A stretch of DNA of 64,000 nt from a virus. How positions within the stretch are numbered: position 1 is the first letter of the stretch; the number at the start of each line of letters is the position of its first letter. A model generated the notes under the pieces. That model worked only from the letters and a program-made list of their open reading frames with translations. It searched no databases and was not told where the DNA came from. The position numbers and the translations under genes were made by a program. The stretch lies in IMG/VR virus record IMGVR_UViG_3300045988_052780; one strand, written 5' to 3'. Below, piece after piece: positions 10,308 through 56,659 of this stretch.

Positions 10308-13300
10308 ATGGCATGTACTAACTTTGACATAGGGCAACACAGACTTGATGCTGAGGTTGCTCTAAGAAGTACAGTATTAAAGTTTAGGAAAGAGCCAGTA
10401 ATATCTACTGCTAATTTCATAGACGACTTCTACAACAGTTTGAAGAATACTGGACTATTTAACCTGGAGAGCGAGGCAGAATATGTCTCGCTTTCTGAGG
10501 TTCTAGAAGATTTTGTTAAAACATCCAGAAGATTAACAGATGCACAGAAGGAACAATTATTAGCTGAATATGCTGTACCGTTAAGTTCCAAATTCAGTAT
10601 TAATCCGGAAACCTCTACAGTAGAGGAAGTTGACAAGAGTCTTGTCATTAAAGACGAACCTGAGGACATTCAAGTAATTGAAGAACCATTGGAGAGAAGA
10701 GTTGCAACTCCATCCATTAGTGATATTTACGGTTCTGCTTCTGTAGTTAAGGAGTATATGCTGAATCAGTTTAGGTATAATATTATAGAAGCATCATTAG
10801 TTAATTTTGCCGACGGTAGACTTATTAAGAGCAATGATGATTTAAATGTTTATATTGCTAAATACAAGAATACCTTATTTAAGAAATTAGTCGACTATAT
10901 TAAATTAGCTAATTCTGAAGAAGGTATAGAAACTGATGCATCTATACTAGATACTATTTACCTAGATGGAATTCCTAATGTAGAGAATATGCAGAAGGTT
11001 CTGGATGCCGCTTCTAGTATATTTGAAAACATATCTAAATCTGCGTTAGACAGTGCATTCGTATCTAAGAAGAGAAACATAGAAGGATTCTATAAGAATC
11101 AGATGTTAGTGGATGGATTCAATGCATGGGCTGTTCTATCTAACGGTAACTTCGATACTATTCTTAAAAGCTTATTCGGAAAGAATATGGAAATTAGGAA
11201 TAGGGGATATGTAGGAATAGAACTACCTGTGAGCACTAATAAATACCAATTTAGATCTGGTTCTAATATGGTTAAAACATGGAGAACTAATGAGAATGTA
11301 GATGCATTATCTGAAATAGGTAATGTGTCTAGATTACTTATTGAACAAACTCCTGTAATTAATCATGTTACTGGAGAGCAGATAGGTGACAAGTATTTAA
11401 ATTTGAAACAATTCGTTCACTCTTTTAGCAAGATTAAAGACGAATACAACTTTATGTTCTTTGGGGAGAGACTACAGGATTTAGTTTTAAATTTACATTC
11501 CGCCCCTAATTATTACTTAGGAGAAATTCTTAAGGAAATATTAAATAGTGATACTAGGTCTAAGGTATTCCAAGTAAACGATCTTAACGTATTTAAATCT
11601 ATCTATGATAAGTTCTATAACAAAGATAAATTCAACTCTTTATATAATATTGCAAATAGAGACTATCTTACTTCTAAAGCTATCACTACTTACGATTTGT
11701 TAGATTCTATATCTGGAGTTGTAGATAGAACTAACAATGCCAGATATGTAGAATATGCTCTTAATAGTGATACTAGAGATTTGGATAGTTCTGAAATTAA
11801 GCAATCTAATGTAAATAGACGTAAAATACAGAGAGAGAATGATATTGATATTGCTAACGAACTTATGGCAGATAGAACTGGCCTATTAAATAGGTGGGGA
11901 ATATCTGTTAGTAACGCTACTACTGGCGACGTCTCTTTTACTTTACCATATAAAGGAGAAAAGGTTACTGTAATTTATAACAGCAATGCAGTTAGTAGTA
12001 AAGGACAAAGAAAGCTTGAATTATCAAACTCTGATATCGTTAAATTTGGAAGGCTAAATACTATATTAGAAGAACCTTCATTTACTAAGTTAAAAGCTAT
12101 ATATGAAGAGAACAATCCACAGGTACTTACTGATGGAGAAAGATTATATGTATCTTTAATAGAATTTATAGATGACTTTGCTAATACAGGATTCTTAAGA
12201 GGTAATGTAGATTTACTAGCTGCATTTAGAAATGTAAATGAAGCTAATAATCTTGATTATCTTGATAAATTAGTAGCTGTTGCAAGCAGTTCTGCATTTG
12301 TTAATACAGTATATGATGGATATGAAAATAATCCTGAGAATTTATCATTACGTTCGTATATAGAAACTCTGAACTATTACAATGAGAAGTTAGGAGATAA
12401 TAATGAAAGGTTCTACTACGATAAAGCCTCAAACTCATTAAAGGCTATTAGACCTAATTTAATTAATATACTTAATGATATTGTAGCAGCTGAACAGGTA
12501 GTAACTGGAGAAATATATAAGTCAGTTATTAAGAATGCTGAAGGTAATAATATACCTAACAGCAGGATTGCTAACTTAGCTGGACTGACTAGGAGCTACG
12601 TTAAAAAGCATATACTTGATAATCCTAGTTCTGCTTTAAAGAATACGCTATTTGGACGAAATCCTAATATGCTAATGGGAACTTCCATAAAAACTGATGT
12701 AGTTAGTAGAAATGGAATAAAGAAGAGTGCTACTAAGTTCTCGGTTGCAGAAATAGGATATTCTTCGTTAGTATATGACTTCTATGGAAACTTATTAAGA
12801 CCAAAGAATGGCAATGCACCTGTAACTATCAATGTACAACCTACTGTATATTCCGATAAGGGAACATTTGTAATGTGGAAGCTTGGTGTAGATAAGATAG
12901 ATGTACTTGATGAGAATGGTAAGCCATTACTTATTAATTTACTTACTTCACCTACTAAAGACATTATTAGTGCTATCAAAGGAACTGTAGGAACTTACTA
13001 TAAGGAAGTATTCAATAATGTATTGGGTGACTATAAAGAAGTATACAGACAATCTTTAGAGACATACTTACAAAGATTGCAGGCTATTAATCCTGAGGCT
13101 GCAAACAGAATACTATCTAAACAGAGTAAAGTAGATGCTGAGAATGCTAAAATAGCTAAACATAATGAATCTCTAGATTCAGAAAGAAACAGACTGTTAC
13201 AAGCATTAGATGCAGCACAAGCAGCTGGTGATTTTATGGATGCTAGTAGCATAGTAGATGCTTTAGACTCTCTTGATATTAAAGAACCAGTTTCATTAGT

Positions 13301-16300
13301 AGATGTACTTGACTACCAAGACTTTACTAATTTATTAGCAGTTACTACATCAGGTGAGTACACTAATATGTCTTATGCTGCTGGAGTCCCTAATATTGAT
13401 AACGTTCACACTAATACAGGAGGGTCATTTGAACTCAATGGCAAAACTAAGAAAGGCCTGATTCCTAATAAACTTTTAAACTTCCTTGCTACAGAAATGT
13501 ATGCTAAAGAGGATGTGTTTAACAAAGCTATGCTTAGAGAACGTAAGAAGTTTGTTAAGGACATGATTGACAATAATATGTCATTCCCTTTAGTATATGC
13601 CAACGGACGTAGTAATACAGTTCTTAGAAAGGCTGCGGATAAGTTATTAGGAGCTGATAAAAGACTATGGGTAAATGAGAATACTCAAGAACTTATATTA
13701 GCTAAACAGGGTAATACTAATATTACTAGACTATCTGATTTAGATAGTAATTGGTTAAGAGATGATGTAGAAATTACTCTAAATCCTCTAATTGAAAGGT
13801 ACTTTGTAGCTGATTTCTTAACATCAGAGAACCTTAGACTAGTAACTACTGGTAGTAGCATTGCACATCCAAATAAAGCTAAATATGGTAGTTTAGATCC
13901 TGACTCATTTAACGGAATAGAAATGGAACACTCTTCTAGAGAACTTGCTGAGTTAAAACGTAATGTGATTGTACCAGCTACATTACAGTATCTACATCAG
14001 AATAGTTTGACTGGAGTACCACCCTGGTATAGAATAGCTGTAATGAGTGATGTCGGAGCTCCTGTATATAACTTTAAAGGTGAAATTGCAGAAGTGGATG
14101 CACATGACGGTTCTGCATGGTGTAATCCTATTATGTCTTATTTGGAGAACTTATCATTACAAGATTCATCTGTAGGAGAAGATAAGAAACCTATTGGACA
14201 TGATTATAATGGAAGATATGGTACAGCAGCTTTATTAAAGTTTGCTACCTTCTCTGCTTACAATGAAAGGCTTCGTCAATCATTAACATCAGACATTAAA
14301 TTATATAATTTATTCAAGAAGATGTCTGATTTTAAATGGAGTGAATCAACAGCTGATTGGGATGTTCCTGCTAATGTAGACCTTACTGTAAATTTATTTG
14401 GTCAGCCAATGACTCTAAGAGATGTCACTGGAGGTGATAGAATATTTTACAGAGACGGTAACAATCATTATGAGATACTAGGACTAGACAAAGTAGGAAA
14501 TGGACTGTATAATATTAGTAAGCAGTTGGTAGATATAAATGGAAATCCAATACAAGCAGTAGGTGCCGCTAATGTATTAATTGATACTAACGTTCCAATT
14601 AATTCTTTATTTGAATTACATGCTGCTTTAGGAGGAGTTTATAGTGAATCACTTAGAGATGGAGAACTTGCATATAGCGATGCTTCATTAGCCGTAACTG
14701 CTACTTATGTTAATAATATAGGACAGTATAAAGCCAATGGAGACATACCTACTCAACGCAATACCAACCAGCCACTCAAATATAAAATGATTGCTTACTT
14801 AGTTAATAAGTCTGCAATCAAAGTGGGAGCTCAAAATATAAATCCAGATAGCTCTTGGTATGATGATTCTCCATTAATGACAATGCACTTTAATACTGAT
14901 GGCTTAGGTATGCAGATGGATGCTGACCACGTAGTTACCGACCCAGAACATCAGTCAACAATGACCGAGTTCTCTCAGGTAATTTCAGCTCTTGAATCTA
15001 TGGGATTTACTCATGATATGGCTAAGAATGCATATAAAAGCTTAGGTAAAGTTGCATTAGCTTCTATAGGTAATATTAAAGAAGCTGTATATGTTCTTAC
15101 TGGAATAAAACCTACTGATAATCCTGATGTTAAATCAGACTTGTATGAGATATTTGGTAAAGCTATTATTAAGGAATTAAATAAGAACAGCGATGAATTA
15201 GGAACTGCCAAAACTATCATTCAGAAAGCTAAGGAGGAGTTTGCTTTAGATAGGAAACGTAGAACTTCACATGGAGCTGACGCTTATAAGATTCCTTATA
15301 GTGATCCTTCTATATTTGCTAAGGCTTTATCTACATTTACGTCCAACATCAATAAGACTGCTATTAAAAGAAAGTTCCCAGGTATGGGTGCTGTTATGGC
15401 TCCTGGATATAATATCATACAGGTACATAGAATTGGAGGGCAGAATTATAGATATGACGATTTATATCGAATTGCAGCTGATGAAGGAATATCAGTAGAT
15501 GAATACTTACAAAGAGAGCAGGCTAAAATTGAATCTGAACCAGCTAATTCTATTGATAGATTACTACCTGGAGATAGAATTAAAATACCTATCCAAGAAG
15601 TGGCTAGTGTAGTTGCCAAGATTAATAGTGACGCTACTAGAAATAAAAAGTTTGCCGAATTAGAAGTTGGCAAGTATACTAGACTAGTAGATCAAGCTAA
15701 TAGAGGAGACGGTGAAGGGGTTGAACTATCTAAGGCTCAAGATAACCTTAATAAGGCACTGTCTAAGTTAGAGAGACTAAATAGAGATATAGCATTAACT
15801 GTACCTCAGTTCTTGGAAGATAATGGATGGAAACTCGAAGGAGAGTATATGTTAGTATATGTAAACGATTATGATTCTTATAATTTCGTCAAGAAGAATT
15901 TCTCTACATTTTATACTGACATTACTAGACCTACAGACTTGAAACCTGCCGAAATATACTGGGATGATGCAACTGGCAAGAGACATAGTATATTCGATAT
16001 GCCAGCAATACAAGCATCGTTTACTGAACGTAAGAAGTATAAGAAGCTTCCTAAAGAAATAGGAGCTAAATTACAGGCTGATGTTCAGAATACATTCATG
16101 TTGCTAGATAAAGGGTATATGACTGCTACTGAAGATATGTTATTGGAATATAATCAAGATCCAGTAGCATTTAGCAAGAAATACGTTCCGGAAGGTAGAT
16201 ACTTAATGGAACTGCCTAATGGTAATATAGCTATTCCAATTCAAAATCTAGTTAATAATCCTGCTGAATTAGTAATTAGTAAGTTATATGTTAATCAATT

Positions 16301-17078
16301 TAATTTAGGTCCTAATGATAGTATTAATGATGTACTTACACAAGGATACCAATTCTTCGTTAATAAGTATGATAAATATCATACTCCTAAAACTAAATTA
16401 TTTGATATAGCATTTACTAGAGGAAGTGGTAAACACGTATATATTGCATTTAATACATCTACTACTATCATAGATAAGCTATCAGCTAATAAAACTCTTA
16501 CTGACGATGACTTCATGAGAGTTGGAGATAGTATCTTTAGAATAGATAAAGATGGCAATAAATTATATGAAAGCGGATATTACGATGCTGAAGGTAATTA
16601 TCATGAGTTGGTAACATCCTATAATGCGATTGATGGTAATTCTGTTGAAGAAGTTTTAGTTGTTAGTACTCCCGATAATGTAATGGATATTTATAAAACT
16701 GACGATTTTGATTCCATTAAAATTAGTCAATATATTAAAGACAAGGCAACATTACAAGGAGTTATAGAACAGGGTAAGGACAGAAGTGACAGATTATTGA
16801 AAGGATTATATGACACATATACTAAAGCATTAGTTAAAGATGATTTTAGCGTATCTAAAATAGCTTATGAACTAGAGGCTTTAGAGAAATCTAGAAAGAT
16901 TACTGCTGCTAAGAAGAAGTTTGTATCATTCCAGAAATCTCTTGAATTTACTGTAGCTCGTATTCCGGCACAGACTATGCAATCATTTATGAAGATGAAA
17001 GCAGTAGCATTTAATGATTCTGATAAGAATGTGGTACATGTATCTCACTGGCAAACTTGGCTACAGGGAAGTGACTAT
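10308..17078 (+). CDS. giant protein, exon 1 (2257 codons); continues in exon 2 after a group I intron
   Basis: The ORF runs to TGA at 17079-81. The last exon nucleotides GACTAT (17073-78) can pair with intron guide sequence GTAGTC (17121-26), giving a U.G wobble at the splice site. No motifs recognised. Confidence 0.6.
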
Positions 17079-18152
17079 TGACCTAATTTTAACTGTTTAG
17101 TTAGGTGACATATTAATATTGTAGTCACTATAATAAATCTCGTGAATTGACGGGGAACTCCTTAGAGCTTAACCTACTAAACTAGAGTAGTAATACATCT
17201 AGTGGCGGCAATTAACTATTGTTGGTAAAGTAAAAAAGGTTAAGATTGGACAATCCGCAGCTAAGCATCCTAGATAAATATTTGGATAATAAGACTAGTT
17301 AATTGACAAAAGTTTTAATATCTTTGTGTTTATAAGGATGAAAGTTCATCGACTATCCCGTAAGGGAGTAGGAACTTTTATCTAATGTTTAACTCAAAAT
17401 ATTAGGTAAATGGCTAGAAGAATAACAAAGAAACTTAGTAAAGAACAAAAGAGCCTACTTATAGGCCTTCTTTTAGGAGATGGAACAATATCTAGTAATT
17501 ATGTATTCAAGCTAAGTCATTCTGAAGCTCAAAGAGAGTTTCTAGAATGGAAGATAGACTTATTAAACAAGTTTGGGTTTAAGAACAATGGTGTTAAGGA
17601 GTATATATCAACATGTGGATATAATAAAGGAAACAAAGTTTTATACTCTCAGATGTCACTTAACCCAACTATAAAAGCCTTAAGGAGAACAGTCTATACT
17701 CCTAAGAAACATATTACTAGAAGATTATTGAATTGGCTTACCCCTATCGGGTTAGCTATATGGTATATGGATGATGGTTGTATAAACGTAAATACTTCAA
17801 AACAGCGTAGCTCAATACAACATACAATCAAAATAGCTACGTGTGTTGATTTAGATACAGCTCAAGTAGTAATTGATTATTTCAAAGAAGTTTGGGATGT
17901 GCAATTTAGACCTTTTAAAGAAGGAAAGGGAACTTATTCTATTGCTAGTTCCACTGAATCTGATTGTGCAGCGTTCATACAAATTATACGTCCATATATA
18001 GAACAGGTTCCATCATTACTCTATAAAATTAGAGATAACTTTACTAAAGAAGAATTTATAGCACAGCAGAAAGCTGGTTCCGAAGTGCGAGACACTCTAG
18101 AGATAGAGTGATGATATAGTCAGTCTCATATTGAAAGGTATGAGGTTAAACG
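17079..18152 (+). mobile_element. group I self-splicing intron (T4 td/nrdB-like core) carrying a LAGLIDADG endonuclease ORF in the P8 region
   Basis: Conserved core elements are present. P is GAATTGACGGGGAACTCC (17144-61). Q is AATCCGCAGC (17252-61). R is GTTCATCGACTATCCC (17344-59). S is GATATAGTC (18113-21). A P9 hairpin CTCATA/TATGAG follows, then terminal G at 18152. P1/P10 pairing is consistent with splicing 17078|18153. Confidence 0.7.
17410..18111 (+). CDS. LAGLIDADG homing endonuclease (intron-encoded)
   Basis: Two LAGLIDADG motifs are present: LLIGLLLGDGTIS and LAIWYMDDGCINV. The ORF lies between the R and S core elements of the intron. Confidence 0.85.
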   Translation: MARRITKKLSKEQKSLLIGLLLGDGTISSNYVFKLSHSEAQREFLEWKIDLLNKFGFKNNGVKEYISTCGYNKGNKVLYSQMSLNPTIKALRRTVYTPKKHITRRLLNWLTPIGLAIWYMDDGCINVNTSKQRSSIQHTIKIATCVDLDTAQVVIDYFKEVWDVQFRPFKEGKGTYSIASSTESDCAAFIQIIRPYIEQVPSLLYKIRDNFTKEEFIAQQKAGSEVRDTLEIE

Positions 18153-21104
18153 GATATTGATAAAGCCTACGTAATGGGTTATGACTTTGATACTAATGGT
18201 AATTATATAGGATGGTCTCCATACTTCAATTTCAATTCTATAGAAGCTCTTAGAATGTCTGAAAGACTACCTACTCCTAATGGTAAACTATATGCATATA
18301 GTCATGCTCCTGGAGCTGTAGATATTACTAATTACGTGGAAATGCTTAATGAGGAGAATTTCTATAACCCAGAATCTCTACCAATCATAGCTGAGTTACT
18401 TACTGTAATTGATGATACTAACTTAGTAAGTTATACTGGGTCGGACACTAAGAATGCTGATTTTATTCTAAGCAGAATAAATAACCATTCTATGTACATG
18501 ACTGAAGAACGTGATGAGAACGGTAGAAGAGTAAAGAATGGTCGTCAGAAGATAAGAGCTATTAATACTTTGCCTGCATTTAGAAACTCTGTATCGGCTA
18601 GTATTAGTAACATTATTCAAGACCTAAAGAATATGACTCAGGCATATTCTCCAATTGAAATGGGAGATCCTCAAGCTGCTGCTGAGAATTCTACTTCTGG
18701 TAAGGAAGCTAACAAAATTACTCTTATGTCTCCTTCTGCTAAATGGGTAATGCAGATGCAGAATATGGATGGTAAACAGGTAATTGGTATTGCAGCTGTT
18801 GGTGAGAAAGTATTCTTTGCTAACTGTTATTATTTTAATGAAGGCATTAGAAGTGGAGATTCTAAGTGGATGAACAACATGTTCTTCTCTAATGTTTATA
18901 AAGGTATTCAGAGCAAGGTGTCAGAGGATGGCAAAATAATTACTGTAGATACCCTCAGAAACATAATGGCCAACATTAACTTTACTGATTTAGCTCCAGA
19001 GAAGAATTATTGGGAGAACCTAATTAGGACTGCTACTGAGCAACAATTAACTCAAGAAGATGTTTCTAGAGTTATTCAAGAGCAATTAGGAGTACAACCT
19101 GACCAATCATTGGTTATCTCAGCTTTACTATCTGCTGCAACCGATAATGCCAAGGAGTTGATTCTATCTAAAATTAATGCTGGTCCTAATCTAGCTGGTA
19201 TGTATTTACATATGATTATGTTAGGATTCAGTTTTAATGATATAGCAAAGAATCTAATGACTACACCTACAGTGCAGACGGTTAATGACTTGATGAAGGT
19301 TAACGTATTTGATGAATATCACGAAACAGCATCTGTTAACTCAGTAATTAGGTCATTAGAAGAAGGTCCTAATATTAGAAACTATTTAAATAATGACGGA
19401 CTGAAGGGATTATATGCTAGAGTGTCTGTTGATAATCCTGGAATGTTTGCCAAGAGAGGTGAGTGGATTCAAGAAATTAAAGATAGATTTGCTAATAATG
19501 GTAGCATCGAAGACATATTCCCTGCTAAGAACTTTAGAGAATTTAGATTCCTAGAGGAATATGAATACTTGTTGAAGATGAAGAGAAGGATAGATCCGGA
19601 CAAATTCACTGAATTTAAGAATATTAATTTTGATGCAAGAGAGACTGAACTTCTTGGTAGATTCTACGGGTTAAATCAAGGTATGCCAACTGATATTGCA
19701 GGTAAAATGGCAATGTTGAATACTTATGAATCAGCTATTACTAATAGGGAGCGTAAGTATCTAACTAGCAGTAATGGGTTTAATGTTGATGAACTAATTG
19801 TTAATGTATTGAAAGAGAAGCCATATTTAGAAGAAACTGCGGTCAGAAATATAGTTAAAGATGCGGTGTCTCAGAATATAGTAAATGGAGGTTTTAGTAT
19901 TAGAAAGTTCTTAGATCCAGTCAATAATGGCTACAGACAGACTACAATTGATTACTATAATATTATTAAGGGAACTTGGAACATATTTGACATGATTACT
20001 AAAATTCCTCATTTCAAAGCACTGTTTGATATTTATAATCTTACTGATACTTCTGACATAAATATAAGCACTAAGTTTAATCTGGTAAATTCCTACAGAG
20101 AAGCCCTTATTAAAGAGAATCCAGTTTACGGTAGAGCTGTTAAAAAGGAGCAATTAGCCGCATTAGCATCTCATACTGATAACGTTCTAATTAATAATTG
20201 GCTTACACGTAGAAACGTAGTATTTAGATTGGAAGAAGGGCAGGAATACATAGGATCCGACATGACTATACACTCAGCTGGTCCTGGTGGAGAAGTATTT
20301 AATTTGTCTACTAATGAGGGAATTGCTAACTTTAAAATGTGGATGGAAAGAGAGGTAATTCCTGCATTAAAGAACGGAGTTGTAGGTAATAAAAGAGTAA
20401 GATCCTTACTTATTAATAGCTTCATACAGGGATTAAGTAGAAACAGAAGATTAGATCCATTTACTAGATCTAATGTAACTTATATGAAGTTGCCAATTAA
20501 TATGTTAAGTACTGAAACAGATCCAGTATTTAGTAGATACCAAAGAGACTTTGCTGCTCTTAAGAAGATAGAACTTCAAGGAGTATCTTTAACAGATTGG
20601 TTCTTTTTGTATAATCTAGTAGTTAATAAGAATCAGTACGGTGCTGACAGATTAACTTCCCTATTTAATACAATAGATGGAGTTGATGTTAGTGATATGT
20701 TAACTGACTTTCATAATTATGTAGGTAACGCTGACTACTGGCTTGATGTTAACATGGACTCATTCTCACTGGAGGATGCCCTTATTAGGATGGCACCTAT
20801 AGTAAGTGAGAGTTCTAAAGGTAGAGCTAGGGATAAATACATTAGAATTAAAGACGATGATACAGGTAGATTATTTCTATATATGAGAAGCGGAGATGAC
20901 TACTATATGGTAGATGAAGTACCAAATATGGAAGATGAGGATTCATTAAGGTTACGTGACAATTACTTCGTAATAAATACTCCTAACCAGAGTAACAGAA
21001 TGAAGGAATTAGTAATTAACTTTTCCGAATCACTTAATACCTTAATAGGTAAGATCAAAAGTCTAATGAGACGTAATACTATACAAATGAGAATCAAGTG
21101 TTAA
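18153..21104 (+). CDS. giant protein, exon 2 (983 codons); spliced product about 3240 aa
   Basis: The frame is open from 18150. Exon 2 begins GATATT directly after G18152, which matches the P10 pairing with TATT upstream of the guide sequence. The predicted junction is ...QGSDY|DIDKAYVMGYDFD.... The ATG at 18174 in the ORF track is probably not a real start. Confidence 0.6.
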   Translation, partial: DIDKAYVMGYDFDTNGNYIGWSPYFNFNSIEALRMSERLPTPNGKLYAYSHAPGAVDITNYVEMLNEENFYNPESLPIIAELLTVIDDTNLVSYTGSDTKNADFILSRINNHSMYMTEERDENGRRVKNGRQKIRAINTLPAFRNSVSASISNIIQDLKNMTQAYSPIEMGDPQAAAENSTSGKEANKITLMSPSAKWVMQMQNMDGKQVIGIAAVGEKVFFANCYYFNEGIRSGDSKWMNNMFFSNVYKGIQSKVSEDGKIITVDTLRNIMANINFTDLAPEKNYWENLIRTATEQQLTQEDVSRVIQEQLGVQPDQSLVISALLSAATDNAKELILSKINAGPNLAGMYLHMIMLGFSFNDIAKNLMTTPTVQTVNDLMKVNVFDEYHETASVNSVIRSLEEGPNIRNYLNNDGLKGLYARVSVDNPGMFAKRGEWIQEIKDRFANNGSIEDIFPAKNFREFRFLEEYEYLLKMKRRIDPDKFTEFKNINFDARETELLGRFYGLNQGMPTDIAGKMAMLNTYESAITNRERKYLTSSNGFNVDELIVNVLKEKPYLEETAVRNIVKDAVSQNIVNGGFSIRKFLDPVNNGYRQTTIDYYNIIKGTWNIFDMITKIPHFKALFDIYNLTDTSDINISTKFNLVNSYREALIKENPVYGRAVKKEQLAALASHTDNVLINNWLTRRNVVFRLEEGQEYIGSDMTIHSAGPGGEVFNLSTNEGIANFKMWMEREVIPALKNGVVGNKRVRSLLINSFIQGLSRNRRLDPFTRSNVTYMKLPINMLSTETDPVFSRYQRDFAALKKIELQGVSLTDWFFLYNLVVNKNQYGADRLTSLFNTIDGVDVSDMLTDFHNYVGNADYWLDVNMDSFSLEDALIRMAPIVSESSKGRARDKYIRIKDDDTGRLFLYMRSGDDYYMVDEVPNMEDEDSLRLRDNYFVINTPNQSNRMKELVINFSESLNTLIGKIKSLMRRNTIQMRIKC

Positions 21105-21105
21105 T

Positions 21106-23535
21106 ATGAGTTGCTCAGTTGAAATTATAATAAATTCTAACAAAGGGGCTTCCAGCGTAATCAAGCTGGAGGTTCCCGATGCTAGTGAAATGTCTTTAGA
21201 GGATGCAGTAGGTGCTCTAATGGGTAATAAAGAAGCATATGATGAGTTTATTGCTGCCGTTAACTCTGGAGGATTTCCTCTAGCTAACTTTAATATTAAT
21301 AGTAATAGACAAGGATTTACATTACCTTCTGGTAATTACAATCTAAATACTATTAGAAATGAGTTTGACACACCTAATATAAGATATCTTGTAGATGCTT
21401 TACAGAAAGAAGGAGTTGATTTAAACGCCTATAACATCTTACTTACTGATGCTAAATTCAGTGTAAATTGGAATAGTAATTACGGAATATTTAATTATCA
21501 AGGTAATTCATTAGCAGTGATTAAACCTACTCCAGATCATATAGAGACACATTTAAAACAATTATATGTATCATCTTTAATGGATAAAGCTCCCAAAGAA
21601 GTTGTAGATGGATTATACTCTAATATAGCTACAGCAGCTAAAATACTAGCCACTGACCCCACTACATCTAGAAGAGCTATGATTACGTTAAGTAAAATAG
21701 GCTATTCAGATGGTAAATTTGTCGCCAGTAAGTCTAATGTTGTCTCTGCATTTACTCATTATTTCTATTCTAGTGCTTCATTAAGTGACGCTTTATATAA
21801 GACAGGATTAATTGGAACCTTTAATAAAATATTTAATGATTTAATAGGTGCTCCAGAGCAAGAGTCCATCAGTTATGATAACCCATCTGCTCAGGCCTTA
21901 ATAGATAGAGCTAAAATATCTGGAAAGTATCTCAAAATATCTAGACAAGATATAGAGTCCTTTATGGAGAATCACGGTTATGGTGAGGCAACTGAAGATA
22001 ATATAGTGTCTGCTATTCAAGACATTAATAACAATATACATAATGGTAAGTTTATAGACATAGCATATATTAGTGATAGTGGATTGTTATTAAGAAACAC
22101 TGTCAAGAAACCTGTATTTGATAAATCTATTGTTAATACAGAATACACTGGAGATATCGTAGATTATATAGAGAACTATAATGGGTATAATATAATCAGA
22201 TATAATAATAAGTACTATATTAGTGATAAATTAATAACTACTGCTGATAATATACATACCTCTGGTGTAGACAATTTAAAACATGCTAAAAACCTGATTA
22301 CACTACAGCTAAATAGACCTATTAACTTTGAATCAGTAGCAACTAGTATTAAGAAGAAATCTGGAGACAAAGTTAACATATCTTCTAGTTCTAAGTTGGA
22401 AATAGGAGATAGATTTAGTGTATTAGATATTACATTAGATGATAAAATAAATCTATATAATGACAAGAAGCTTATTAAGTCTATAACATTTAATAACTTC
22501 GTGTCTGAAATGATGAAGAAGCCACAATACAATAAAATATTAACATCACTAAATGAACAAGGAATTAACATTCAATCTATATTAGATACTCCGGAGAAAG
22601 TAGCGACGTTCTTCTTACTTAAGAACCAACTTAGAGATCCAGAGACCCATAATGCCTTATATAATAATAAGGTTCCTAGTATGCTTACCCCGGACAAATT
22701 AAATTATGAAACTGAGCTTATTACTAAGGCGTTAAATATAATCGAAAATGCTAGTGAATCAGTGTATGAAGTAGTTGCAGCAGCTGGGGATAAATATAAC
22801 TTACAGAAGCTTCAAATGAGCACTAACGTTCCAGTTCATAAGAAGGTGCCAAGGTCATTTAAAAGTGAAATGGTAGAAATAGCCAATCATCTTGGAAAGA
22901 ATTATGGTATTAAAATTAATGTAGTTACAGCCAGAGAATTAGCAGATTCTTTTAAGGGTGTAATACCCAATGTAGGTAGAACTAATGCATTTATTTATAA
23001 TGGAGAAATATATTTAAATGTAGACAGAGCAACAACTGCTGATTCATTACATGAATTTGCACATCTTATTATGGGTTCCATTAAGAGGACTAATTCAGAT
23101 TTATATTACGGATTAGTAAACCAAGTGGAGCAACTTTCTGATTATGATGATAAAGTACAAGCATTTAGGAATATAGGAGACAGTAGAGCAGTTACAGACT
23201 TAAATGAAGAAATATTTGTTACAGAGTTTGGTAATTACTTTAGTAAGATTGCAGACACGTGGTTTGAAGGTAAGGAAACTGACTTGGATGCCCTGGGAGA
23301 ACTATTTAAAGCCAAAACTCAAAACACATTCCAAACTTCGGAAGACATTAAAGATGAGAAATTAGGTAAATTACTTAACATGAGCATAGATGATATAATG
23401 TCAGAATTTGGTAGTGCTTTAGTTAATAAGGACTTTAGAGAAGGTTTTGATATGGATATGGCATCTGAATCTCGTGTAATTACTAATCTAATAGAAAGAA
23501 TGATTAAAAGTGGTAATTTAAAGGAGGATTGTTAA
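21106..23535 (+). CDS. large protein (809 aa) with an HExxH zincin-like motif (HEFAHLIMG ... E); possible virion or ejected metallopeptidase
   Basis: The start overlaps the upstream stop. An HEFAH motif has a glutamate about 25 residues downstream. Otherwise no recognisable domains. Confidence 0.5.
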   Translation: MSCSVEIIINSNKGASSVIKLEVPDASEMSLEDAVGALMGNKEAYDEFIAAVNSGGFPLANFNINSNRQGFTLPSGNYNLNTIRNEFDTPNIRYLVDALQKEGVDLNAYNILLTDAKFSVNWNSNYGIFNYQGNSLAVIKPTPDHIETHLKQLYVSSLMDKAPKEVVDGLYSNIATAAKILATDPTTSRRAMITLSKIGYSDGKFVASKSNVVSAFTHYFYSSASLSDALYKTGLIGTFNKIFNDLIGAPEQESISYDNPSAQALIDRAKISGKYLKISRQDIESFMENHGYGEATEDNIVSAIQDINNNIHNGKFIDIAYISDSGLLLRNTVKKPVFDKSIVNTEYTGDIVDYIENYNGYNIIRYNNKYYISDKLITTADNIHTSGVDNLKHAKNLITLQLNRPINFESVATSIKKKSGDKVNISSSSKLEIGDRFSVLDITLDDKINLYNDKKLIKSITFNNFVSEMMKKPQYNKILTSLNEQGINIQSILDTPEKVATFFLLKNQLRDPETHNALYNNKVPSMLTPDKLNYETELITKALNIIENASESVYEVVAAAGDKYNLQKLQMSTNVPVHKKVPRSFKSEMVEIANHLGKNYGIKINVVTARELADSFKGVIPNVGRTNAFIYNGEIYLNVDRATTADSLHEFAHLIMGSIKRTNSDLYYGLVNQVEQLSDYDDKVQAFRNIGDSRAVTDLNEEIFVTEFGNYFSKIADTWFEGKETDLDALGELFKAKTQNTFQTSEDIKDEKLGKLLNMSIDDIMSEFGSALVNKDFREGFDMDMASESRVITNLIERMIKSGNLKEDC

Positions 23536-26500
23536 TGGCTTGTACATACAGTTTAAATATAAATGGTCAAATACAGCAATTTAACGATTATGCTGAATTG
23601 TTTGACTTCTTAATAGGACATAAGAACCAAATTGAAATGGGACTTATATCAGATATTGTGTTTAGCCAAGACACTAAGCAGTCCGAAATGGTAGCTAAGT
23701 TAAGATCTATTAAAGCTACCGCTAAACTCAACAGCAACGGAGTAGACCCTGTATCTGGTGATATTGTGTACAAAGCAGAAGGTTCTAACATGTCAGTTAC
23801 AGATTTCTTAGAAACTGCTACTATTACCAAAGATTCTAAAGAAACTTTCTTAGGACAGCCGTTCAGTATTAAGAATTGGAGAAATAATACTATAAATGAA
23901 TTGGTATCCAAGGGTATGACTCATGCTGAAGCTGAAGAGCAGGTTAATAATATTATGGAAATGTGGGAGAGGATAGCAGATACTGGCGCTGAATTACATG
24001 CTGTTTTAGGTGATTACTTTGCCGGTCATATGTCATTAGAAGAGCTTATAGATAAGTATGCTGGAGTATTTAGTGAACAAGCTGTCAGGAGTATATACAA
24101 GAATATGGCATCTTTTAAAGATGAAATCTATAAGGCACATGGACAGGACGCTAAACTACTGCCTCAATTTACTATAGATTCTAAAACATTGGATGGAGTT
24201 AATATAATAGGTTCTATAGATTTGGTAGTGATAGGTGAGGATGGTCAACCGCATTTATATGTCTTCAAAAGTTCTGCAAAGTTGTCTGATAGGTGGGATG
24301 CTGCTAAGCAAACTAAGTATGATTACCAGTTAGCTTTCTATAGACAAATGTTAGCTTCCAAAGGTATTCCTGCTGCTAATATGGAACTGAATATAGTACC
24401 TATGCATCTGGAAGGGCTAGAGGATGGGGAATTAACTGGAGTTAGCTTCGAAGGAGTGCAAGACAGAACTAAAGATTCTGGAGGCACCATTAATAGACTA
24501 GCTTGGGGAGTAGGTGAATTTTATAATAATGTGAGTTATGCAATTCCAGTAAGACTTACCGATGAAACTATAGGGGAATCTATTAGAGATAATGTACTAG
24601 ATACTCTTAGTAAGTTTATACCTAATCCTAAGATTAAATCAATTAGAGAGCAAATTGATGTAGATGCTTTTATTGCAAATCATGTTTATGATTCTCCGAA
24701 TCCCTCTGAGGGCAGATGGTATTTTAAAGATTTCTACAGTAAAGGAAAGCCTATCTATATCAAAGAAGATTCACCTAAAGAGAAGAATGCGGAACTTAGA
24801 GTAGAAGTAGAGAAATACCTAAATAAGATGGTTAAGAATCATAGACTTAAGACTAACAAATTTATCTATGATCTTAAAAGAGCCATTGATGGTAAAATTC
24901 CGTTGGAGGATGTGAGTCCTACTACTGGATATACTACTAATGCCTTTGTAGTAACTACATTCCAGAAATATGTTAACGATCCAGGATGGGAATTAGTAAA
25001 TATAGAAGCACTAAAACAATTAGGAATTGTAGCTATTAGTAATACTATTACCAAACAAATTGATTTTATTGCATTAAGCCATCATGATTTACATACTGAA
25101 CTTAAGCTATCTTTAGGAACTACAATGTTAGGAGAACATGAAAAGGACGCATATGCTCTTAATAACAAAATGATATTATTGGCAACTAATGGCAATATTG
25201 AGTTAATGAAGATAATGGCTGCCATTAATGAGATTCCTAATGCATTAACTGATGTATTTAAAATAGGAGACATTAAGGTAATTAATACAGAAGACTCTAA
25301 AGCTACCACTGCTACTTCAAGACAGATAAAGGAAACATTTAATCTGTTAGCCAAAGCAGCTAAAGTTAATAATAATATTAACAAATTGTCCTTTATGGAT
25401 GAATTGGATGTTATTAAGAATGAGTTCCTAGCTTTGATGAACAGACCTAATGGTAAACTTACTAATAGTTTGTCTAGAGATATAGAGGCTTTATCTAAGG
25501 AATTATTCAACATTAATACCGTAAATAAGAATGAGATAGCCAATAGACTAATAGCCCTAGCTAGAAGGATGGAGAATGGAGAACGTCTTGGTAAGATAGT
25601 TGGAGGTTCTCTAGAATCTATAGCTAATGAATCTTCTAACACTGGAATAGAAAGACTATACAAGTCAATATTACAGGCTATAGCTTATTATAAAGGATTA
25701 GACTTCCTTCAACCTAAAGAGATTTCTAGATATACACAGAAAGGAACTCCTTTATCTGGAGGTATGATAACTAATCCGGATTTATTTCCAGAGGATAACT
25801 TACGCCAAATTACTCTTGCTGTGAGAGGTGCATTTGATAACGTTACTAGAGAAATGACTCCTTATCATGAGAAATTCCTTACCGGATATGTAAAACCCTT
25901 ATGGAAAGATAAAGGTTACAGTAATGCCAGAAACATTGTTATAGGAGATCAGGTTAAGCTGTATAATAATTTCTTTAGAAGGAATTCTGACGGAAGTCTT
26001 AATAATAAGATGTTATTTGTAGATCCTTATGATAGCAGTACTCCACTTACTTCAGAGGAAAGACGATTCTTAAAGCAAGCACTGTGGCTTATAAACCAAG
26101 AAAGATTCCCTAATATCAGAAGCTTGTCTGAAGATAGCGAGACGGTAAAGCAACTTAAGAAGACCGAGAAGTGGTTCTGGGTTCCTCTTATGGAAGCCAA
26201 TAATCAGATTCTACAAATGGGAATTAGTAAGTGGATTAACCAAGAAGTAAAGGACGTAACTGGAAGATTTAAGGATTATTGGAATAGATCCCAAAACGAT
26301 GCTTATAGTGATAGGGAGTATAGTGACAAACAGAAAGTAATTACTAGGTACGAAATGTACAATAGATTTAATTTATCAGAAGCCAGTGAGGAAGCTAGAG
26401 ACGCCTTATTAGCTGAATATAAACCAGATTTCTGGGAACGTAACATAGAGACCCTAGTAACTACTTATAAGTTTGCATCAGCTAGAAAGGAACAATTGGA

Positions 26501-28109
26501 TATTATATTACCTGCAATTAAGGGAATAAAGATGTCATTATTAGGATATGCTAAGTCTACGGATACAGATTTATCAGTCCTTAATGAGACTTTGGACAAC
26601 TATTTAAAGGTAGCAGTATTTAACCAATCTATTATTAGTGAAGAAGGCCGTCAAGCTTTTGAATATCTTAACCCTATTAAAAGACTAGCATCTTTTGGAC
26701 TACTTGCATTTAACGTTACTGGGGGTGTTCGTGATATGATTAATGGTATGTGGAAGCAGTCATCTCTAGCCTTTAGTAAAATGTACTATACTGATGAGAA
26801 GTTCACTAGAAAGGATTTGGCCCAAGCTATGGCATTAGTAACCAAAGAAGGGCCAGATATGCTTAGTAGGACTACTAAGATTGAGGCTATTAATAATATG
26901 ATTAGACTAGCTAATATAGATATGCAAGTTCTAAATAAACGGCTTATTAGTAACAAATCTGGATTAGCTAATATGTCTAGGCATGCTTATCAGTTAACTA
27001 CTGCCCCGGATTATTTCCATCGTATGACCATATTTGTAGCTCAATGCTTACATGATGGTACATGGGATGCATTAGAAATGACTGATGAGGGCATTAAATA
27101 TAATTGGAAGAAAGATAAGCGTCTAGCAGTATATGCTTCTGGTAATAAGAGTAATCCTGAATACAATAAGCAAAGAGGACTTTATTTATCTATAATGGAA
27201 GCCTATAATAGAGACAATGGATTAAATCTAAAAGAAGGAGATGATTTACCATTTGCCTATACTAAAGATGAAGTATTGGCTGCTAAAACCTTGTCAGATC
27301 TTATTTATGGACACTATGACCAGGAAAGTAGAGCTTTGGCTGAGAAGACATTTATGGGAGCATTATTCGGACAGTTTAAAACCTATTTATCTGCAACTAG
27401 AAATGCCTATTTACTTAAACCCAAGAATTATAATTTAGCTGGAAGAGTTCAAGCTAAGAATGACAATGGTGATTTATTATGGTATAAAGATGAGGTGGAC
27501 GAGAACGGTAATTCTATAGTAATAGTCACTACTGAGAACACTGGAGTTCCTGCTACTATTAATGAGGACAGATATCTAGAAGGTATTTATTATACTATTA
27601 AAGACTGCTTTAGGGCTTTACATGAAGGTGGATTCTCAGAATTTAGAGATAGTATCTGGAATGAAGAGACCGGTGTAAAGAAAGCAAATTTAAAGAGATT
27701 AGCTCATGATATGTTCTTATGGATGATACTTGGAACTATAGGTAAATACCTTATTGAACTATGGGGAGAGACTAGAGAGGAAGATAGAGATCCTTTAAAT
27801 CCTAACATGTCTCAAGCCATGAGAGATACTGTATTTAGCCTATTTGAAAGAGGTTACAACAGTTCATACGGAGATATAGCTCCCTGGAGTGTGTTGCTAG
27901 GACTTATTAAAAATTCAGAACCTGTATCTATAGGATACTTAAGTACATTCTTTAATAATACTTATGAGTTTGCATTTGGTGATAAATCTCTATCATCTTA
28001 TCTCACAGGAACTACTGGACTTGGTAGAACATTTAAAGGAATGACTACAGAACTTAATAATATGTCCAAACTTGCAGCAGATGCAATAGAGGAAGATACA
28101 GCACAGTAA
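23535..28109 (+). CDS. large protein (about 1524 aa); possible N-terminal RecB-like PD-(D/E)xK nuclease fold (weak)
   Basis: The ORF track start (23529) is a TTG. An ATG at 23535 overlaps the upstream stop as TAATG, 7 nt after AAGGAGG. Near residues 230-270 the pattern IDLVV ... YVFKSS ... QLAFY resembles RecB-family nuclease motifs II, III and QhxxY. Confidence 0.55.
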   Translation: MACTYSLNINGQIQQFNDYAELFDFLIGHKNQIEMGLISDIVFSQDTKQSEMVAKLRSIKATAKLNSNGVDPVSGDIVYKAEGSNMSVTDFLETATITKDSKETFLGQPFSIKNWRNNTINELVSKGMTHAEAEEQVNNIMEMWERIADTGAELHAVLGDYFAGHMSLEELIDKYAGVFSEQAVRSIYKNMASFKDEIYKAHGQDAKLLPQFTIDSKTLDGVNIIGSIDLVVIGEDGQPHLYVFKSSAKLSDRWDAAKQTKYDYQLAFYRQMLASKGIPAANMELNIVPMHLEGLEDGELTGVSFEGVQDRTKDSGGTINRLAWGVGEFYNNVSYAIPVRLTDETIGESIRDNVLDTLSKFIPNPKIKSIREQIDVDAFIANHVYDSPNPSEGRWYFKDFYSKGKPIYIKEDSPKEKNAELRVEVEKYLNKMVKNHRLKTNKFIYDLKRAIDGKIPLEDVSPTTGYTTNAFVVTTFQKYVNDPGWELVNIEALKQLGIVAISNTITKQIDFIALSHHDLHTELKLSLGTTMLGEHEKDAYALNNKMILLATNGNIELMKIMAAINEIPNALTDVFKIGDIKVINTEDSKATTATSRQIKETFNLLAKAAKVNNNINKLSFMDELDVIKNEFLALMNRPNGKLTNSLSRDIEALSKELFNINTVNKNEIANRLIALARRMENGERLGKIVGGSLESIANESSNTGIERLYKSILQAIAYYKGLDFLQPKEISRYTQKGTPLSGGMITNPDLFPEDNLRQITLAVRGAFDNVTREMTPYHEKFLTGYVKPLWKDKGYSNARNIVIGDQVKLYNNFFRRNSDGSLNNKMLFVDPYDSSTPLTSEERRFLKQALWLINQERFPNIRSLSEDSETVKQLKKTEKWFWVPLMEANNQILQMGISKWINQEVKDVTGRFKDYWNRSQNDAYSDREYSDKQKVITRYEMYNRFNLSEASEEARDALLAEYKPDFWERNIETLVTTYKFASARKEQLDIILPAIKGIKMSLLGYAKSTDTDLSVLNETLDNYLKVAVFNQSIISEEGRQAFEYLNPIKRLASFGLLAFNVTGGVRDMINGMWKQSSLAFSKMYYTDEKFTRKDLAQAMALVTKEGPDMLSRTTKIEAINNMIRLANIDMQVLNKRLISNKSGLANMSRHAYQLTTAPDYFHRMTIFVAQCLHDGTWDALEMTDEGIKYNWKKDKRLAVYASGNKSNPEYNKQRGLYLSIMEAYNRDNGLNLKEGDDLPFAYTKDEVLAAKTLSDLIYGHYDQESRALAEKTFMGALFGQFKTYLSATRNAYLLKPKNYNLAGRVQAKNDNGDLLWYKDEVDENGNSIVIVTTENTGVPATINEDRYLEGIYYTIKDCFRALHEGGFSEFRDSIWNEETGVKKANLKRLAHDMFLWMILGTIGKYLIELWGETREEDRDPLNPNMSQAMRDTVFSLFERGYNSSYGDIAPWSVLLGLIKNSEPVSIGYLSTFFNNTYEFAFGDKSLSSYLTGTTGLGRTFKGMTTELNNMSKLAADAIEEDTAQ

Positions 28110-28971: not shown

Positions 28972-29212
28972 CGCACATAGTAATAGTTACTAGCTCTCCA
29001 CTATCTATAGCTTTACGAATATATCTCATTAAAGTAATGGGTTTGGGATATTCTGCCACAAATGTAGCAGTCCCTACATCCTCTTTATCATTCATATCCA
29101 CCGGGAACATAATTCTCTGGTTCTCAGTTTCTATCTGATAATAAAGCACTCCAGCTATAGCATGTGTGAATCTGGCCGGATAAGGTAAAGTTACAATTTC
29201 TTTTAATGTCAT
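28958..29212 (-). CDS. hypothetical protein
   Basis: Tiled minus-strand ORF that overlaps its neighbours by a few nt. Confidence 0.35.
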   Translation of the reverse strand: MTLKEIVTLPYPARFTHAIAGVLYYQIETENQRIMFPVDMNDKEDVGTATFVAEYPKPITLMRYIRKAIDSGELVTITMCDAEV

Positions 29213-30144
29213 TAATTACATAAATTAGCTTTAACTAAGTCTGCAATCTTCTTCCCATCAGCAGCTGGATATTTAGCTTTCAATTCTTTGACAGCTATCC
29301 CCATCTGATTCTTAGGGATTTGTACTGGATGAATATCATGTTCTTCATTATCGTCATACCATCCTTTATCTAATGCAAGTTTAAGTAATGCAGCATTCAA
29401 TTCTTCTTTAGTAGGTTCTTTAGGAAGCAACTCCTCTAGTATCTCAGCCTCATCAGCCTCAACTGCCGATAAGTCCATACGCCCTGCTGTTTGATAGGTT
29501 TCTGCATTAGCCCATCTTTCATCCCTCATCTTCTTAATAATAGAGATTTCCGCAGCTTCATCCAAAGGTTTAGCATTCTTAGCCGCTGCATAATTAGTAA
29601 ATGCAGTCTTAATAGCTCTATACACATTAGTACGTGTAGTGTCATGCTTCTTCATAGAATCAGCAATCATTACATTCAATTTATCATTCCACATATCATT
29701 CCTATTTAAAATATTAATTATATGTCTAACATCCTCATCAGTAATGCCTATAACTGTATTAGTTTTTATAAAGTACTTCCTCTGATGAGATAGCATATCT
29801 CTATCGTCGTCTACTATAGCGTAGACATAAGGTTCTGTTTGAGAATCAAGCCATTCCTGTATTTCACAACCTCTATGGCTTCCGAACGGAGTAATACTAT
29901 GTATTTTGAATTTTAAACCAGCTTTGTCGAAGATTGATTGTAAGTTGGATTCAGTTCTCCAGGAAGAACTTACAACTACCTTACAACCAGTCTCTTCAAC
30001 TATTCTGTTTACAAGTTCAACACATTTTGGATCAAAGTCTCCTTGAGGATATACATGGTTTTTATTCCATTCCTCCCGATACCATGAAACACTATTAAGT
30101 ACTCCATCTACGTCCAAGAATAAATATTTATTAATTCCTCTCAT
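29212..30144 (-). CDS. HAD-superfamily phosphatase domain protein with an unknown C-terminal domain
   Basis: N-terminal motif I LFLDVDGVL (DxDG[VT]) is present, with an SSSW motif II-like segment. This resembles the HAD phosphatase domains of RNA-repair enzymes. Confidence 0.65.
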   Translation of the reverse strand: MRGINKYLFLDVDGVLNSVSWYREEWNKNHVYPQGDFDPKCVELVNRIVEETGCKVVVSSSWRTESNLQSIFDKAGLKFKIHSITPFGSHRGCEIQEWLDSQTEPYVYAIVDDDRDMLSHQRKYFIKTNTVIGITDEDVRHIINILNRNDMWNDKLNVMIADSMKKHDTTRTNVYRAIKTAFTNYAAAKNAKPLDEAAEISIIKKMRDERWANAETYQTAGRMDLSAVEADEAEILEELLPKEPTKEELNAALLKLALDKGWYDDNEEHDIHPVQIPKNQMGIAVKELKAKYPAADGKKIADLVKANLCN

Positions 30145-30187
30145 AAAATGTTACTTCTCAATAAGTTCAACTTCTAGTTTATAAGTT

Positions 30188-30709
30188 CTAATTAGAACTC
30201 ATATTGTGTCTACGGAGAATGTTCTCAGCTGTACCAGATTTCCATTTAGACTTACCTCTTAAGAATGCTATATCCACATCAGAGAAGGTTGTCATTGCTG
30301 AGTCTCTATCAGTATCACATTCGTAGCCTCCGACATAATGTACTTGAGGACAATCCTCTAGTGTTACCAGATCGGATTCATCTTCTACACCTTCATTGAA
30401 GCGTTCTCTAACGTCTATATAATAGTTGCCATCGTCAGCCTTAGTTCCAACTCTAAATCTAGGCTCAGAGAACATGTGATGAATGGTAAGTGTACAAGGA
30501 ACACAGTCCCACTCATCCATATTCTCTTCAATATACTTTGCTATATATTCAGCTGCCATTTGATCGCAGCCCTTACAATCACCAACTATGAATTCACAAT
30601 CTTCCCAAGTGGTTTGTCCATTATCTATAGCATCTTCTATAGCTGGTGCATAGTTAGCATCAAACTCTTCTTGAGTTAAGTCTCGGTGTCCACTAATAAA
30701 GTATATCAT
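30188..30709 (-). CDS. hypothetical protein, possibly SLOG/YpsA-like nucleotide-binding fold (weak)
   Basis: ISGHRD ... IVGDCKGCDQMAAEYI loosely resembles the YpsA/DUF1273 N-terminal pattern. Assignment is tentative. Confidence 0.35.
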   Translation of the reverse strand: MIYFISGHRDLTQEEFDANYAPAIEDAIDNGQTTWEDCEFIVGDCKGCDQMAAEYIAKYIEENMDEWDCVPCTLTIHHMFSEPRFRVGTKADDGNYYIDVRERFNEGVEDESDLVTLEDCPQVHYVGGYECDTDRDSAMTTFSDVDIAFLRGKSKWKSGTAENILRRHNMSSN

Positions 30710-31263
30710 TCCGCAAATAAATTGTCTAAGTCTTCTATTTCTTCATAATCTACATAAGTATGAAAGATGCCTTCAATAAGATGTTTGTGATTAAATGCCC
30801 ACTGATAGTTGTCAAGGTCAGACATTTTAACCCACATGATAGCTTTTACTTCATTCTCCTCTCCACCTAGCTGTCCCTTAATAGCATTAGTAGAAATACC
30901 AATATGACTCTCGTCTACTACAGCCATGAATCTCATGGTAACATTCTGTCTATTGGAATCTTTCGGGTCATCATTAATACTACACATGTAAAGAGCACTA
31001 GGTTCAACCTTAGCTCCAGTTTCCTCATAAATTTCCCTAGAGCAGGCCTCTGCTAATGTTTCATCGAAGTCCAAATAACCACAAGGACAGTTCCAATATC
31101 CTTGAAAGTCTGGTGCTCCTTCACCTCTTTGATTAGCAAGAACACACCATTCATTGTTAATCTTGCAGAATACAAACCCTACAACAGCAATACTACGATG
31201 AACCCAAACTGTTTCTCCAGCATGTTCACCTGTTTCAATTTTAATTGGATAATTCTTCATCAA
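30706..31263 (-). CDS. Nudix hydrolase
   Basis: Nudix box GYWNCPCGYLDFDETLAEACSREIYEETG matches Gx5Ex7REUxEExGU. Confidence 0.8.
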   Translation of the reverse strand: MMKNYPIKIETGEHAGETVWVHRSIAVVGFVFCKINNEWCVLANQRGEGAPDFQGYWNCPCGYLDFDETLAEACSREIYEETGAKVEPSALYMCSINDDPKDSNRQNVTMRFMAVVDESHIGISTNAIKGQLGGEENEVKAIMWVKMSDLDNYQWAFNHKHLIEGIFHTYVDYEEIEDLDNLFAE

Positions 31264-56651: not shown

Positions 56652-56659
56652 GTGGAGGG

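Follow-up and report, generated by a model that had tools for sequence, protein, structure and literature searches.

The crAss-like phages rank with the most abundant of human gut viruses, and annotation of the giant genes for their virion RNA polymerases is difficult. Both group I introns and inteins occur densely in the Delta and Zeta groups of these phages (Yutin et al. 2021, PMC7886860), and the figure of the transcription block in that study includes a LAGLIDADG 'intron-encoded endonuclease maturase'. The same work describes crAss-like RNA polymerases as extremely divergent, with an essential DxDxD motif, and reports breaks within that motif which may point to 'additional, yet unknown expression mechanisms' (PMC7886860); a 2023 review (PMC10136315) repeats this account of the broken Zeta-group polymerase open reading frames (ORFs). 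Elsewhere among phages, PhiPA3 carries a homing-endonuclease group I intron in the gene of a virion RNA polymerase subunit, and the competitive advantage it confers was established by experiment (reviewed in PMC12908238). Here we analyze a comparable locus in IMG/VR virus record IMGVR_UViG_3300045988_052780, a stretch of 64,000 nt hereafter referred to as the window, in which a giant RNA-polymerase-like gene on the + strand is interrupted within its DxDxD motif by 1074 nt (17079..18152). Cumulatively, the evidence leaves us highly confident that this segment is a mobile group I intron which is functional, with splicing at 17078|18153. An earlier interpretation of the window made from its letters alone (the sequence-only reading) had called introns in phage genes of this kind uncommon, which was an overstatement in view of their density in Delta- and Zeta-group crAss-like phages (PMC7886860) and of the PhiPA3 precedent (PMC12908238).

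The upstream ORF extends from 10308 to 17081 (10308..17081, 2257 aa). Its coding portion, exon 1 of the giant gene (10308..17078, + strand, 2257 codons, assigned from the ORF and its translation), has the tail ...W-L-Q-G-S-D-Y, with TAT at 17076-78 as the last sense codon and TGA next. The downstream ORF (18174..21104) encodes 976 aa, and its frame is open from 18150; exon 2 (18153..21104, + strand, 983 codons plus stop, assigned by translation) begins D-I-D-K-A-Y, with 18153 onward reading GAT ATT GAT AAA. The 2257- and 976-codon ORFs and the 1074 nt between them, as given in the sequence-only reading, were reproduced by our ORF check. Exon 1 and exon 2 lie in a single frame, and ligation of 17078 to 18153 is predicted to produce a protein of 3240 aa, composed of the 2257-aa and 983-aa frames with zero internal stops; the continuous ligated frame proposed earlier is thus borne out, and the junction is matched by uninterrupted homologues. 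The spliced protein contains a single DxDxD, DYDID at residues 2256-2260, with the intron located between Y and the second D, such that the first Asp resides on exon 1 and exon 2 supplies the remainder of the motif. The insert itself, which we assign to the group I introns (+ strand) from partial matches to the Rfam model Intron_gpI, covariation and presence or absence among relatives, is interrupted in the exon frame by 43 stop codons, among which all three kinds are represented. Its first codon in that frame is UGA and its last base is a terminal G (omega-G) at 18152.

Homologous proteins and DNA alleles without the insert locate the junction to the nucleotide. A search with a 600-aa query built from the predicted ligation returned 16 homologues. 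Nine of these have no interruption, and their sequence over the junction is LQGSDYDIDKAY, or LDGADFDIDKAY in the case of P0013. The sequence GSDYDIDK is nearly invariant among the homologues, P0013 having GADFDIDK. Two further homologues (P0015 and P0016) stop at ...GSDY and another (P0011) restarts at DIDKAY, and P0012 restarts at DYDIDKAY, two residues before that point, since its intron (locus L003) lies 6 nt upstream. When IMG/VR was scanned with a single 278-aa query, 30 close loci were found: 13 are intron-less, with contiguous GACTAT|GATATTGAT, and 17 carry an insert of 1073-1075 nt at the identical nucleotide. Across the insertion point intron-less alleles read GGTTCTGACTAT|GATATTGATAAGGC, and a pattern search added five more distant ones, including the Zeta-group cMAG OLGM01000006. 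The junction-pattern scan further revealed that intron-bearing alleles are not alone in having the AGT serine codon beside the junction, and when annotated phages were searched by tblastn with the junction region, only two unannotated 'Bacteriophage sp.' records were returned. On these sequence comparisons, intron-less proteins and intron-less DNA alleles alike confirm the exact junction 17078|18153, for which the predicted ligated sequence is CAGGGAAGTGACTAT|GATATTGATAAAGCCTACG and the predicted spanning peptide ...TWLQGSDYDIDK....

The anatomy of the insert is that of a group I intron, and all features described in this paragraph are on the + strand. The conserved elements P (17144-61, GAAUUGACGGGGAACUCC), Q (17252-61, AAUCCGCAGC), R (17344-59, GUUCAUCGACUAUCCC) and S (18113-21, GAUAUAGUC) each fit the group I consensus of the Rfam alignments; all four were found in canonical order, in agreement with Intron_gpI, exactly where the sequence-only reading had placed them. 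The P1 pairing of exon GACUAU with intron GUAGUC and the P10 pairing, both proposed earlier, are present and in fact longer than was thought. P1 joins the exon segment 17070-78 (AGUGACUAU) to the guide 17121-29 (GUAGUCACU) through 9/9 bp, with a U17078.G17121 wobble at the 5′ splice site, and contains in its loop a variable L1 hairpin (17081-86 with 17101-06); P10 joins 17115-20 (AAUAUU) to the six bases that open exon 2 (18153-58, GAUAUU) through 6/6 bp. P3 is formed by 17138-44 (UCUCGUG) and 18086-92 (UGCGAGA; 7/7 bp, with G.U to G-C variation), its 3′ strand being downstream of most of the endonuclease ORF, and together with P7, formed by 17351-55 (GACUA, in R) and 18117-21 (UAGUC, in S; 5/5 bp), it makes up the P3-P7 pseudoknot. 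The P4-P6 domain (17148..17345) comprises P4 (17148-54 with 17254-59), P5 (17159-61 with 17248-50), P5a (17168-74 with 17238-44), P5b (17181-89 with 17194-203), P5c (17206-12 with 17218-24), P6 (17260-61 with 17344-45), P6a (17266-70 with 17336-40) and P6b (17274-88 with 17319-33). P7 is followed by the P7.1 hairpin (17356-59 with 17364-67), which has a GNRA loop (GUAA or GUGA), and by P7.2 (17371-75 with 18077-81), which encloses the endonuclease ORF and changes from GGAAC/GUUCC in the window to GAGC/GCUC in locus L002. Compensatory changes occur in both the P8 hairpin (18093-98 with 18105-10), after which J8/7 follows, and P9 (18125-32 with 18137-44), which has a GAAA loop, and the last base of the intron is G18152 in 20/20 intron copies. 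The architecture is IA-like, with P7.1/P7.2 present and no evident P2.

A different P8, in which 17376-83 would pair with 18101-08 and the ORF would occupy the P8 loop, was considered and rejected. This assignment was dropped because L001 breaks two of its pairs, because the conserved GCGAGA at 18087-92 pairs with the 5′ strand of P3, and because CACUCU/AGAGUG forms a covarying hairpin. The ORF is not in a P8 loop but is located in a P7.1/P7.2 extension, between the 5′ strand of P7 and the 3′ strand of P3.

These helices were examined for covariation in an alignment of 12 distinct introns inserted at the same site, which are 73-99.9% identical. The 102 proposed pairs are 97.8% paired over the 12 variants, and double-sided changes affect 16 pairs, as compared with 0-2 when the partners are slid by 1-3 columns; the observed pairing and covariation values were reached by none of 500 shuffles (0/500). 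Compensatory changes are present at ten pairs of P5a, P5b and P5c taken jointly. In P1, 3/12 variants have C-to-U in the exon together with a compensating G-to-A in the guide (C-G to U-A), the exon change being synonymous (GAC to GAU), and the U17078.G17121 wobble is invariant in 12/12. P10 is 98.6% paired in the 12 variants, but almost invariant. Extending the comparison to five introns at the DxDxD motif (window, L002, cr108_1, cr131_1 and L003, the last three described below), we observed that P1, P3, P4, P8 and P9 differ in sequence yet remain complementary, and that the guide of each of the four other introns fits its own exon. P7 is intact (5/5 bp) and invariant in every intron examined, and is therefore uninformative for covariation.

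The ORF enclosed by P7.2 (17410..18111, + strand, 233 aa) encodes a LAGLIDADG homing endonuclease, as the sequence-only reading had recognized for the ORF between R and S: it matches Pfam LAGLIDADG_2 with E = 7.6e-26 and 91.5 bits (cut-off 25), and also PHROG 11023. Motif 1 is LLIGLLLGDG (GDG at residue 23, Asp 24) and motif 2 is LAIWYMDDG (DDG at residue 121, Asp 121/122). Its frame differs from that of the exons. The last 8 codons overlap the 3′ strand of P3 and P8, and the UGA stop codon (18109-11) reaches from the end of the 3′ strand of P8 (18105-10) into J8/7, covering the first base of the latter. The ORF is intact in 12/12 variants with a ratio of nonsynonymous to synonymous substitutions (dN/dS) of 0.05-0.15, and is thus under purifying selection. 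The putative target of the predicted enzyme is the intron-less site GGTTCTGACTATGATATTGATAAGGC.

Distribution of the intron among related phages points to mobility. The exons of locus L031 are approximately 75% identical to those of the window (900 nt of each) and group this locus with the lineage of L001, L009 and L015 (96-97% identical), whereas its intron is 99.9% identical to that of the window. In L031, the window-like flanks reach no further than about 10 nt on the upstream side of the junction and 21-32 nt on its downstream side. A nearly identical intron within diverged exons, bordered by short window-like flanks, is the pattern that recent homing with co-conversion leaves behind. Within this lineage (L001/L009/L015/L031), alleles are found that are empty, that carry a 79%-identical intron type, or that carry the window type (also present in L035, 92%). 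As judged from these sequences, the intron is mobile and has recently been transferred laterally to a diverged lineage. A further observation concerns locus L021 (IMGVR_UViG_3300045988_022016), the intron of which is mostly window-like (97.9%), with a P9 and 3′ tail that have the sequence found in the 79%-identical type (CUUAUAU...AUAUAAG) and are shorter by one base. This suggests that its 3′ end arose by recombination between intron variants.

Based on this anatomy, the following course of events can be proposed. In the folded pre-mRNA the guide at 17121-29 would engage the end of exon 1 to form P1 with its U17078.G17121 wobble, and a free guanosine bound in P7 would attack after U17078. Exon 2 would then be positioned by P10 (17115-20 with 18153-58) and the terminal G18152, and in-frame ligation would yield one 3240-aa protein with DYDID intact. 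In a co-infection the endonuclease encoded by the ORF would cut intron-less alleles at GGTTCTGACTAT|GATATTGATAAGGC, and in the course of recombinational repair the broken allele would acquire the intron and a small number of exon bases next to it.

The window site is one of several within the motif that are occupied by introns. L003 (Logan SRR6824177 contig, 2780-4078) contains another group I intron located 6 nt upstream, between GS and DY, with a 304-aa LAGLIDADG ORF in the loop of P1 and a stop codon that overlaps the guide sequence. In cr108_1 (Steigviridae; L008, MT774385, 2482-2777) an ORF-less group I intron of 296 nt is located between GSD and Y, and in cr131_1 (Suoliviridae; L042, NC_055902, about 2341-3251) a LAGLIDADG-bearing group I intron is located between GSD and F; these GSD|Y/F introns are 3 nt upstream of the window site. 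In the GenBank records of both cr108_1 and cr131_1 the two halves of the gene are separate hypothetical proteins, and the upstream coding sequence extends into the intron. A bolder idea, which we consider rather unlikely, is that the six nucleotides encoding the center of DxDxD are a homing hot spot of crAss-like phages, with at least three independent intron/endonuclease lineages at the phased sites GS|DY, GSD|Y and GSDY|D, and that the endonucleases serve as weapons between co-infecting gut phages. Were it true, an intron-bearing phage would cut the essential polymerase gene of its intron-less competitors, as PhiPA3 does, introns at adjacent sites would protect by destroying the target, and the fragmented polymerase genes of the Zeta group would be explained.

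Several features of the window bear on the identity of the phage and of its interrupted gene. The PolA of this phage, the genome of which is also contained in the 182.5-kb IMG/VR contig L011, is 40-47% identical to crAss-like PolA. A homologous intron-less gene is present in cMAG OLGM01000006, which corresponds to zeta_5 in Yutin et al. 2021 (PMC7886860); that gene is itself uncharacterised, and the homology shown for the host gene does not extend to characterised members of the polymerase family. The polymerase candidate lies among consecutive giant ORFs, of which one contains a PD-(D/E)XK domain, an arrangement that fits the description in PMC7886860. Together, the DxDxD motif, the run of giant ORFs with PD-(D/E)XK, PolA and the OLGM01000006 homologue lead to the assignment of the phage as crAss-like and of the gene as its probable virion RNA polymerase. 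It is fairly secure that the host is a crAss-like phage related to the Zeta group, and the gene is probably a crAss-type virion RNA polymerase of the phi14:2 gp66 type. The nuclease domain (E = 3.6e-5) is encoded by a 1526-aa ORF 3′ of the polymerase gene (window 23529-28109, + strand), in agreement with the published nuclease domain inside a large protein of the crAss-like transcription block. Regarding the genetic code of related phages, in-frame TAG codons are found at positions of window CAA/CAG codons in L002 (5490-5530; HW-TAG-TW) and L003 (2750-2780; F-TAG-TWL-TAG-GS), which indicates, as far as codon correspondence goes, that the L002 and L003 phages recode TAG to Gln. Unlike the L002 and L003 genes, the giant ORFs of the window are open under the standard code.

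A number of results weigh against the interpretation of the insert as a functional intron within a polymerase gene. Rfam returned zero matches on the whole window, by gathering score and by E-value search alike. A search restricted to 16900-18300 (1.4 kb) gave two partial Intron_gpI matches in the correct order, one to 17144-17375 (22.1 bits, E = 0.0049, model positions 56-151, from P3′ to P7) and one to 17925-18143 (28.5 bits, E = 6.2e-5), the real content of which is S plus P9; together they amount to approximately 50 bits, the gathering threshold of RF00028 Intron_gpI being 50 bits. The sequence-only reading had counted failure of a covariance model to score the region as a refutation, which was an overstatement, as the Rfam model does fall short of its gathering score here. 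The shortfall is likely due to the approximately 730 nt, ORF included, inserted in the core between P7 and P3′, where a short J7/3 is expected; relatives without that insertion score higher (80.0 bits for ORF-less cr108_1 and 80.9 bits for the L003 core), and the DNA polymerase intron of Bacillus phage SIOphi scores 66.7 bits with Intron_gpI. A P2 helix was looked for in the intron and not found. None of P3, P4, P6, P7 and P7.1 varies within the set of 12 same-site variants, and support for these helices comes from their match to the consensus and from distant introns aligned by hand. The minimum-free-energy fold of an ORF-deleted construct recovered 62/91 nested pairs and missed P3, P4 and P6; given that these long-range core helices were unrecovered, the folding result was excluded from the evidence. 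The pattern scan for ligated junctions, such as cDNA might contain, returned only more distant intron-less DNA alleles. As for the polymerase assignment, Pfam and PHROG gave zero matches for both exons and for the adjacent giant ORFs, and PDB sequence searches with a single sequence and with a profile gave only a chance match to a designed protein. The assignment relies on a modest structural match to a model of mean predicted local distance difference test (pLDDT) 64, the Foldseek matches being non-significant and mostly to bacterial beta' chains.

Considering these points, it is conceivable that the gene is truly split, its 2257-aa and 976-aa subunits assembling after translation, with a free-standing endonuclease gene and its non-coding flanks between them. 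Multisubunit split polymerases do occur in other phages, and the GenBank records of cr108_1 and cr131_1 list the halves as separate proteins. Yet the downstream ORF has no ATG before 18174, so that D-I-D-K-A-Y-V would be lost and separate translation from this codon would destroy the DxDxD motif, and the exon-2 frame opens just 3 nt ahead of the predicted 3′ splice site. Moreover, what would be non-coding flanks contain group I helices backed by covariation, the exon-guide pairing included, and intron-less relatives are continuous at the exact nucleotide, all of which leaves a split gene a very slim chance. Neither an intein nor a recoding bypass by stop reassignment, frameshifting or ribosome hopping fits the locus any better, even though the related L002 and L003 read TAG as Gln and unknown mechanisms have been proposed for the DxDxD breaks (PMC7886860). 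The Pfam search detected no Hint or intein domain, and the insert has the full group I architecture; the endonuclease ORF in another frame and the 43 exon-frame stops exclude an intein or readthrough, the probability of which we regard as close to nil.

The sub-threshold Rfam score, the lack of a detectable P2 and the failure of folding to recover P3, P4 and P6 would also be compatible with an intron that has decayed into a splicing-defective pseudogene, or with one that depends wholly on a protein cofactor, e.g. a LAGLIDADG maturase. LAGLIDADG proteins are maturases in some organellar introns, and the legend of Fig. 3 of PMC7886860 uses the term 'endonuclease maturase'. Decay is hard to reconcile with retention of the intron, its structure compensated and its ORF intact, in 12 distinct variants that come from at least 17 genomes, with recent spread to a diverged lineage, or with a host gene whose motif is called essential in crAss-like RNA polymerases (PMC7886860), and the U.G wobble, terminal G, P7, J8/7 and P3-P7 pseudoknot are all present. 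We therefore judge loss of splicing, or complete dependence on a cofactor, to be improbable, and favor a functional mobile group I intron, predicted to be self-splicing, at 17079-18152.

Other parts of the window contain further interrupted or accessory genes. The nrdD gene is fragmented on the minus strand (55811-60496): one piece (59369-60496) covers the ATP-cone and NRDD profile positions 6-165 and another (57679-58488) covers NRDD 223-462, with an HNH endonuclease ORF (58478-59224) between the pieces and a GIY-YIG ORF (56758-57540) after them, all on the same strand. These breaks possibly represent two more endonuclease-bearing insertions, perhaps introns; Rfam detected no group I core in the split nrdD region. 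A block of accessory metabolism on the minus strand (29212-34763) comprises, according to PHROG matches, a tRNA amidotransferase-like domain (29212-30144), a NAD synthetase (32282-33271) and a nicotinamide phosphoribosyl transferase (33585-34763).

If the interpretation of 17079-18152 is correct, the break in DxDxD receives a conventional explanation, namely a mobile group I intron, predicted to be self-splicing, with a junction defined to the nucleotide. Recognition of such introns would repair the annotations of cr108_1 and cr131_1 and yield ligated sequences for use in proteomics, and the data point to active exchange of introns between co-occurring gut phages. The conceptual gain is modest, as the class of element, homing into active-site codons and occurrence in crAss-like phages are already known. 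What is added, from sequence comparison, is an exact explanation for the DxDxD break and evidence that several introns occupy a hot spot, with transfer still under way.

Compared with the phages of Yutin et al. (PMC7886860), the phage of the window belongs to the same assemblage, and in both a LAGLIDADG element is found in the transcription block. The introns in PMC7886860 were, as far as the text shows, identified via protein domains, whereas this locus is resolved here as to RNA structure, exact splice junction, alleles lacking the intron and three adjacent insertion sites. The likeness to PhiPA3 lies in an endonuclease-bearing group I intron within a phage RNA polymerase gene, the target in that system being the intron-less allele of a co-infecting relative; the difference is that PhiPA3, a jumbo phage of Pseudomonas, is unrelated and its polymerase is multisubunit. 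As to the endonuclease, the closest solved structure is I-SceI, encoded by the group I intron in the 21S rRNA of yeast mitochondria (E ~1e-4, residues 92-217). Both are single-chain, two-motif proteins of approximately 235 aa encoded in group I introns, but their similarity is only distant and their target sequences are unrelated. Related RNAs are the intron cores of Twort-like Staphylococcus and SPO1-like Bacillus (SIOphi) phages, to which the P3-P6 core of the window (17135-17271) is 73-75% identical in nucleotide sequence, and matching cores are located between the parts of split genes: the endolysin gene of a Twort-like phage, the DNA polymerase gene of an SPO1-like phage, and genes of an Enterococcus phage and of crAss-like phages. 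The Twort-like and SPO1-like introns have P7.1/P7.2-type insertions between P7 and P3′, as in the window, but reside in other host genes and at other insertion sites, and they carry HNH or GIY-YIG endonucleases or none. Against these, the window intron, with no evident P2, is set apart by the LAGLIDADG ORF in its P7.2 loop.

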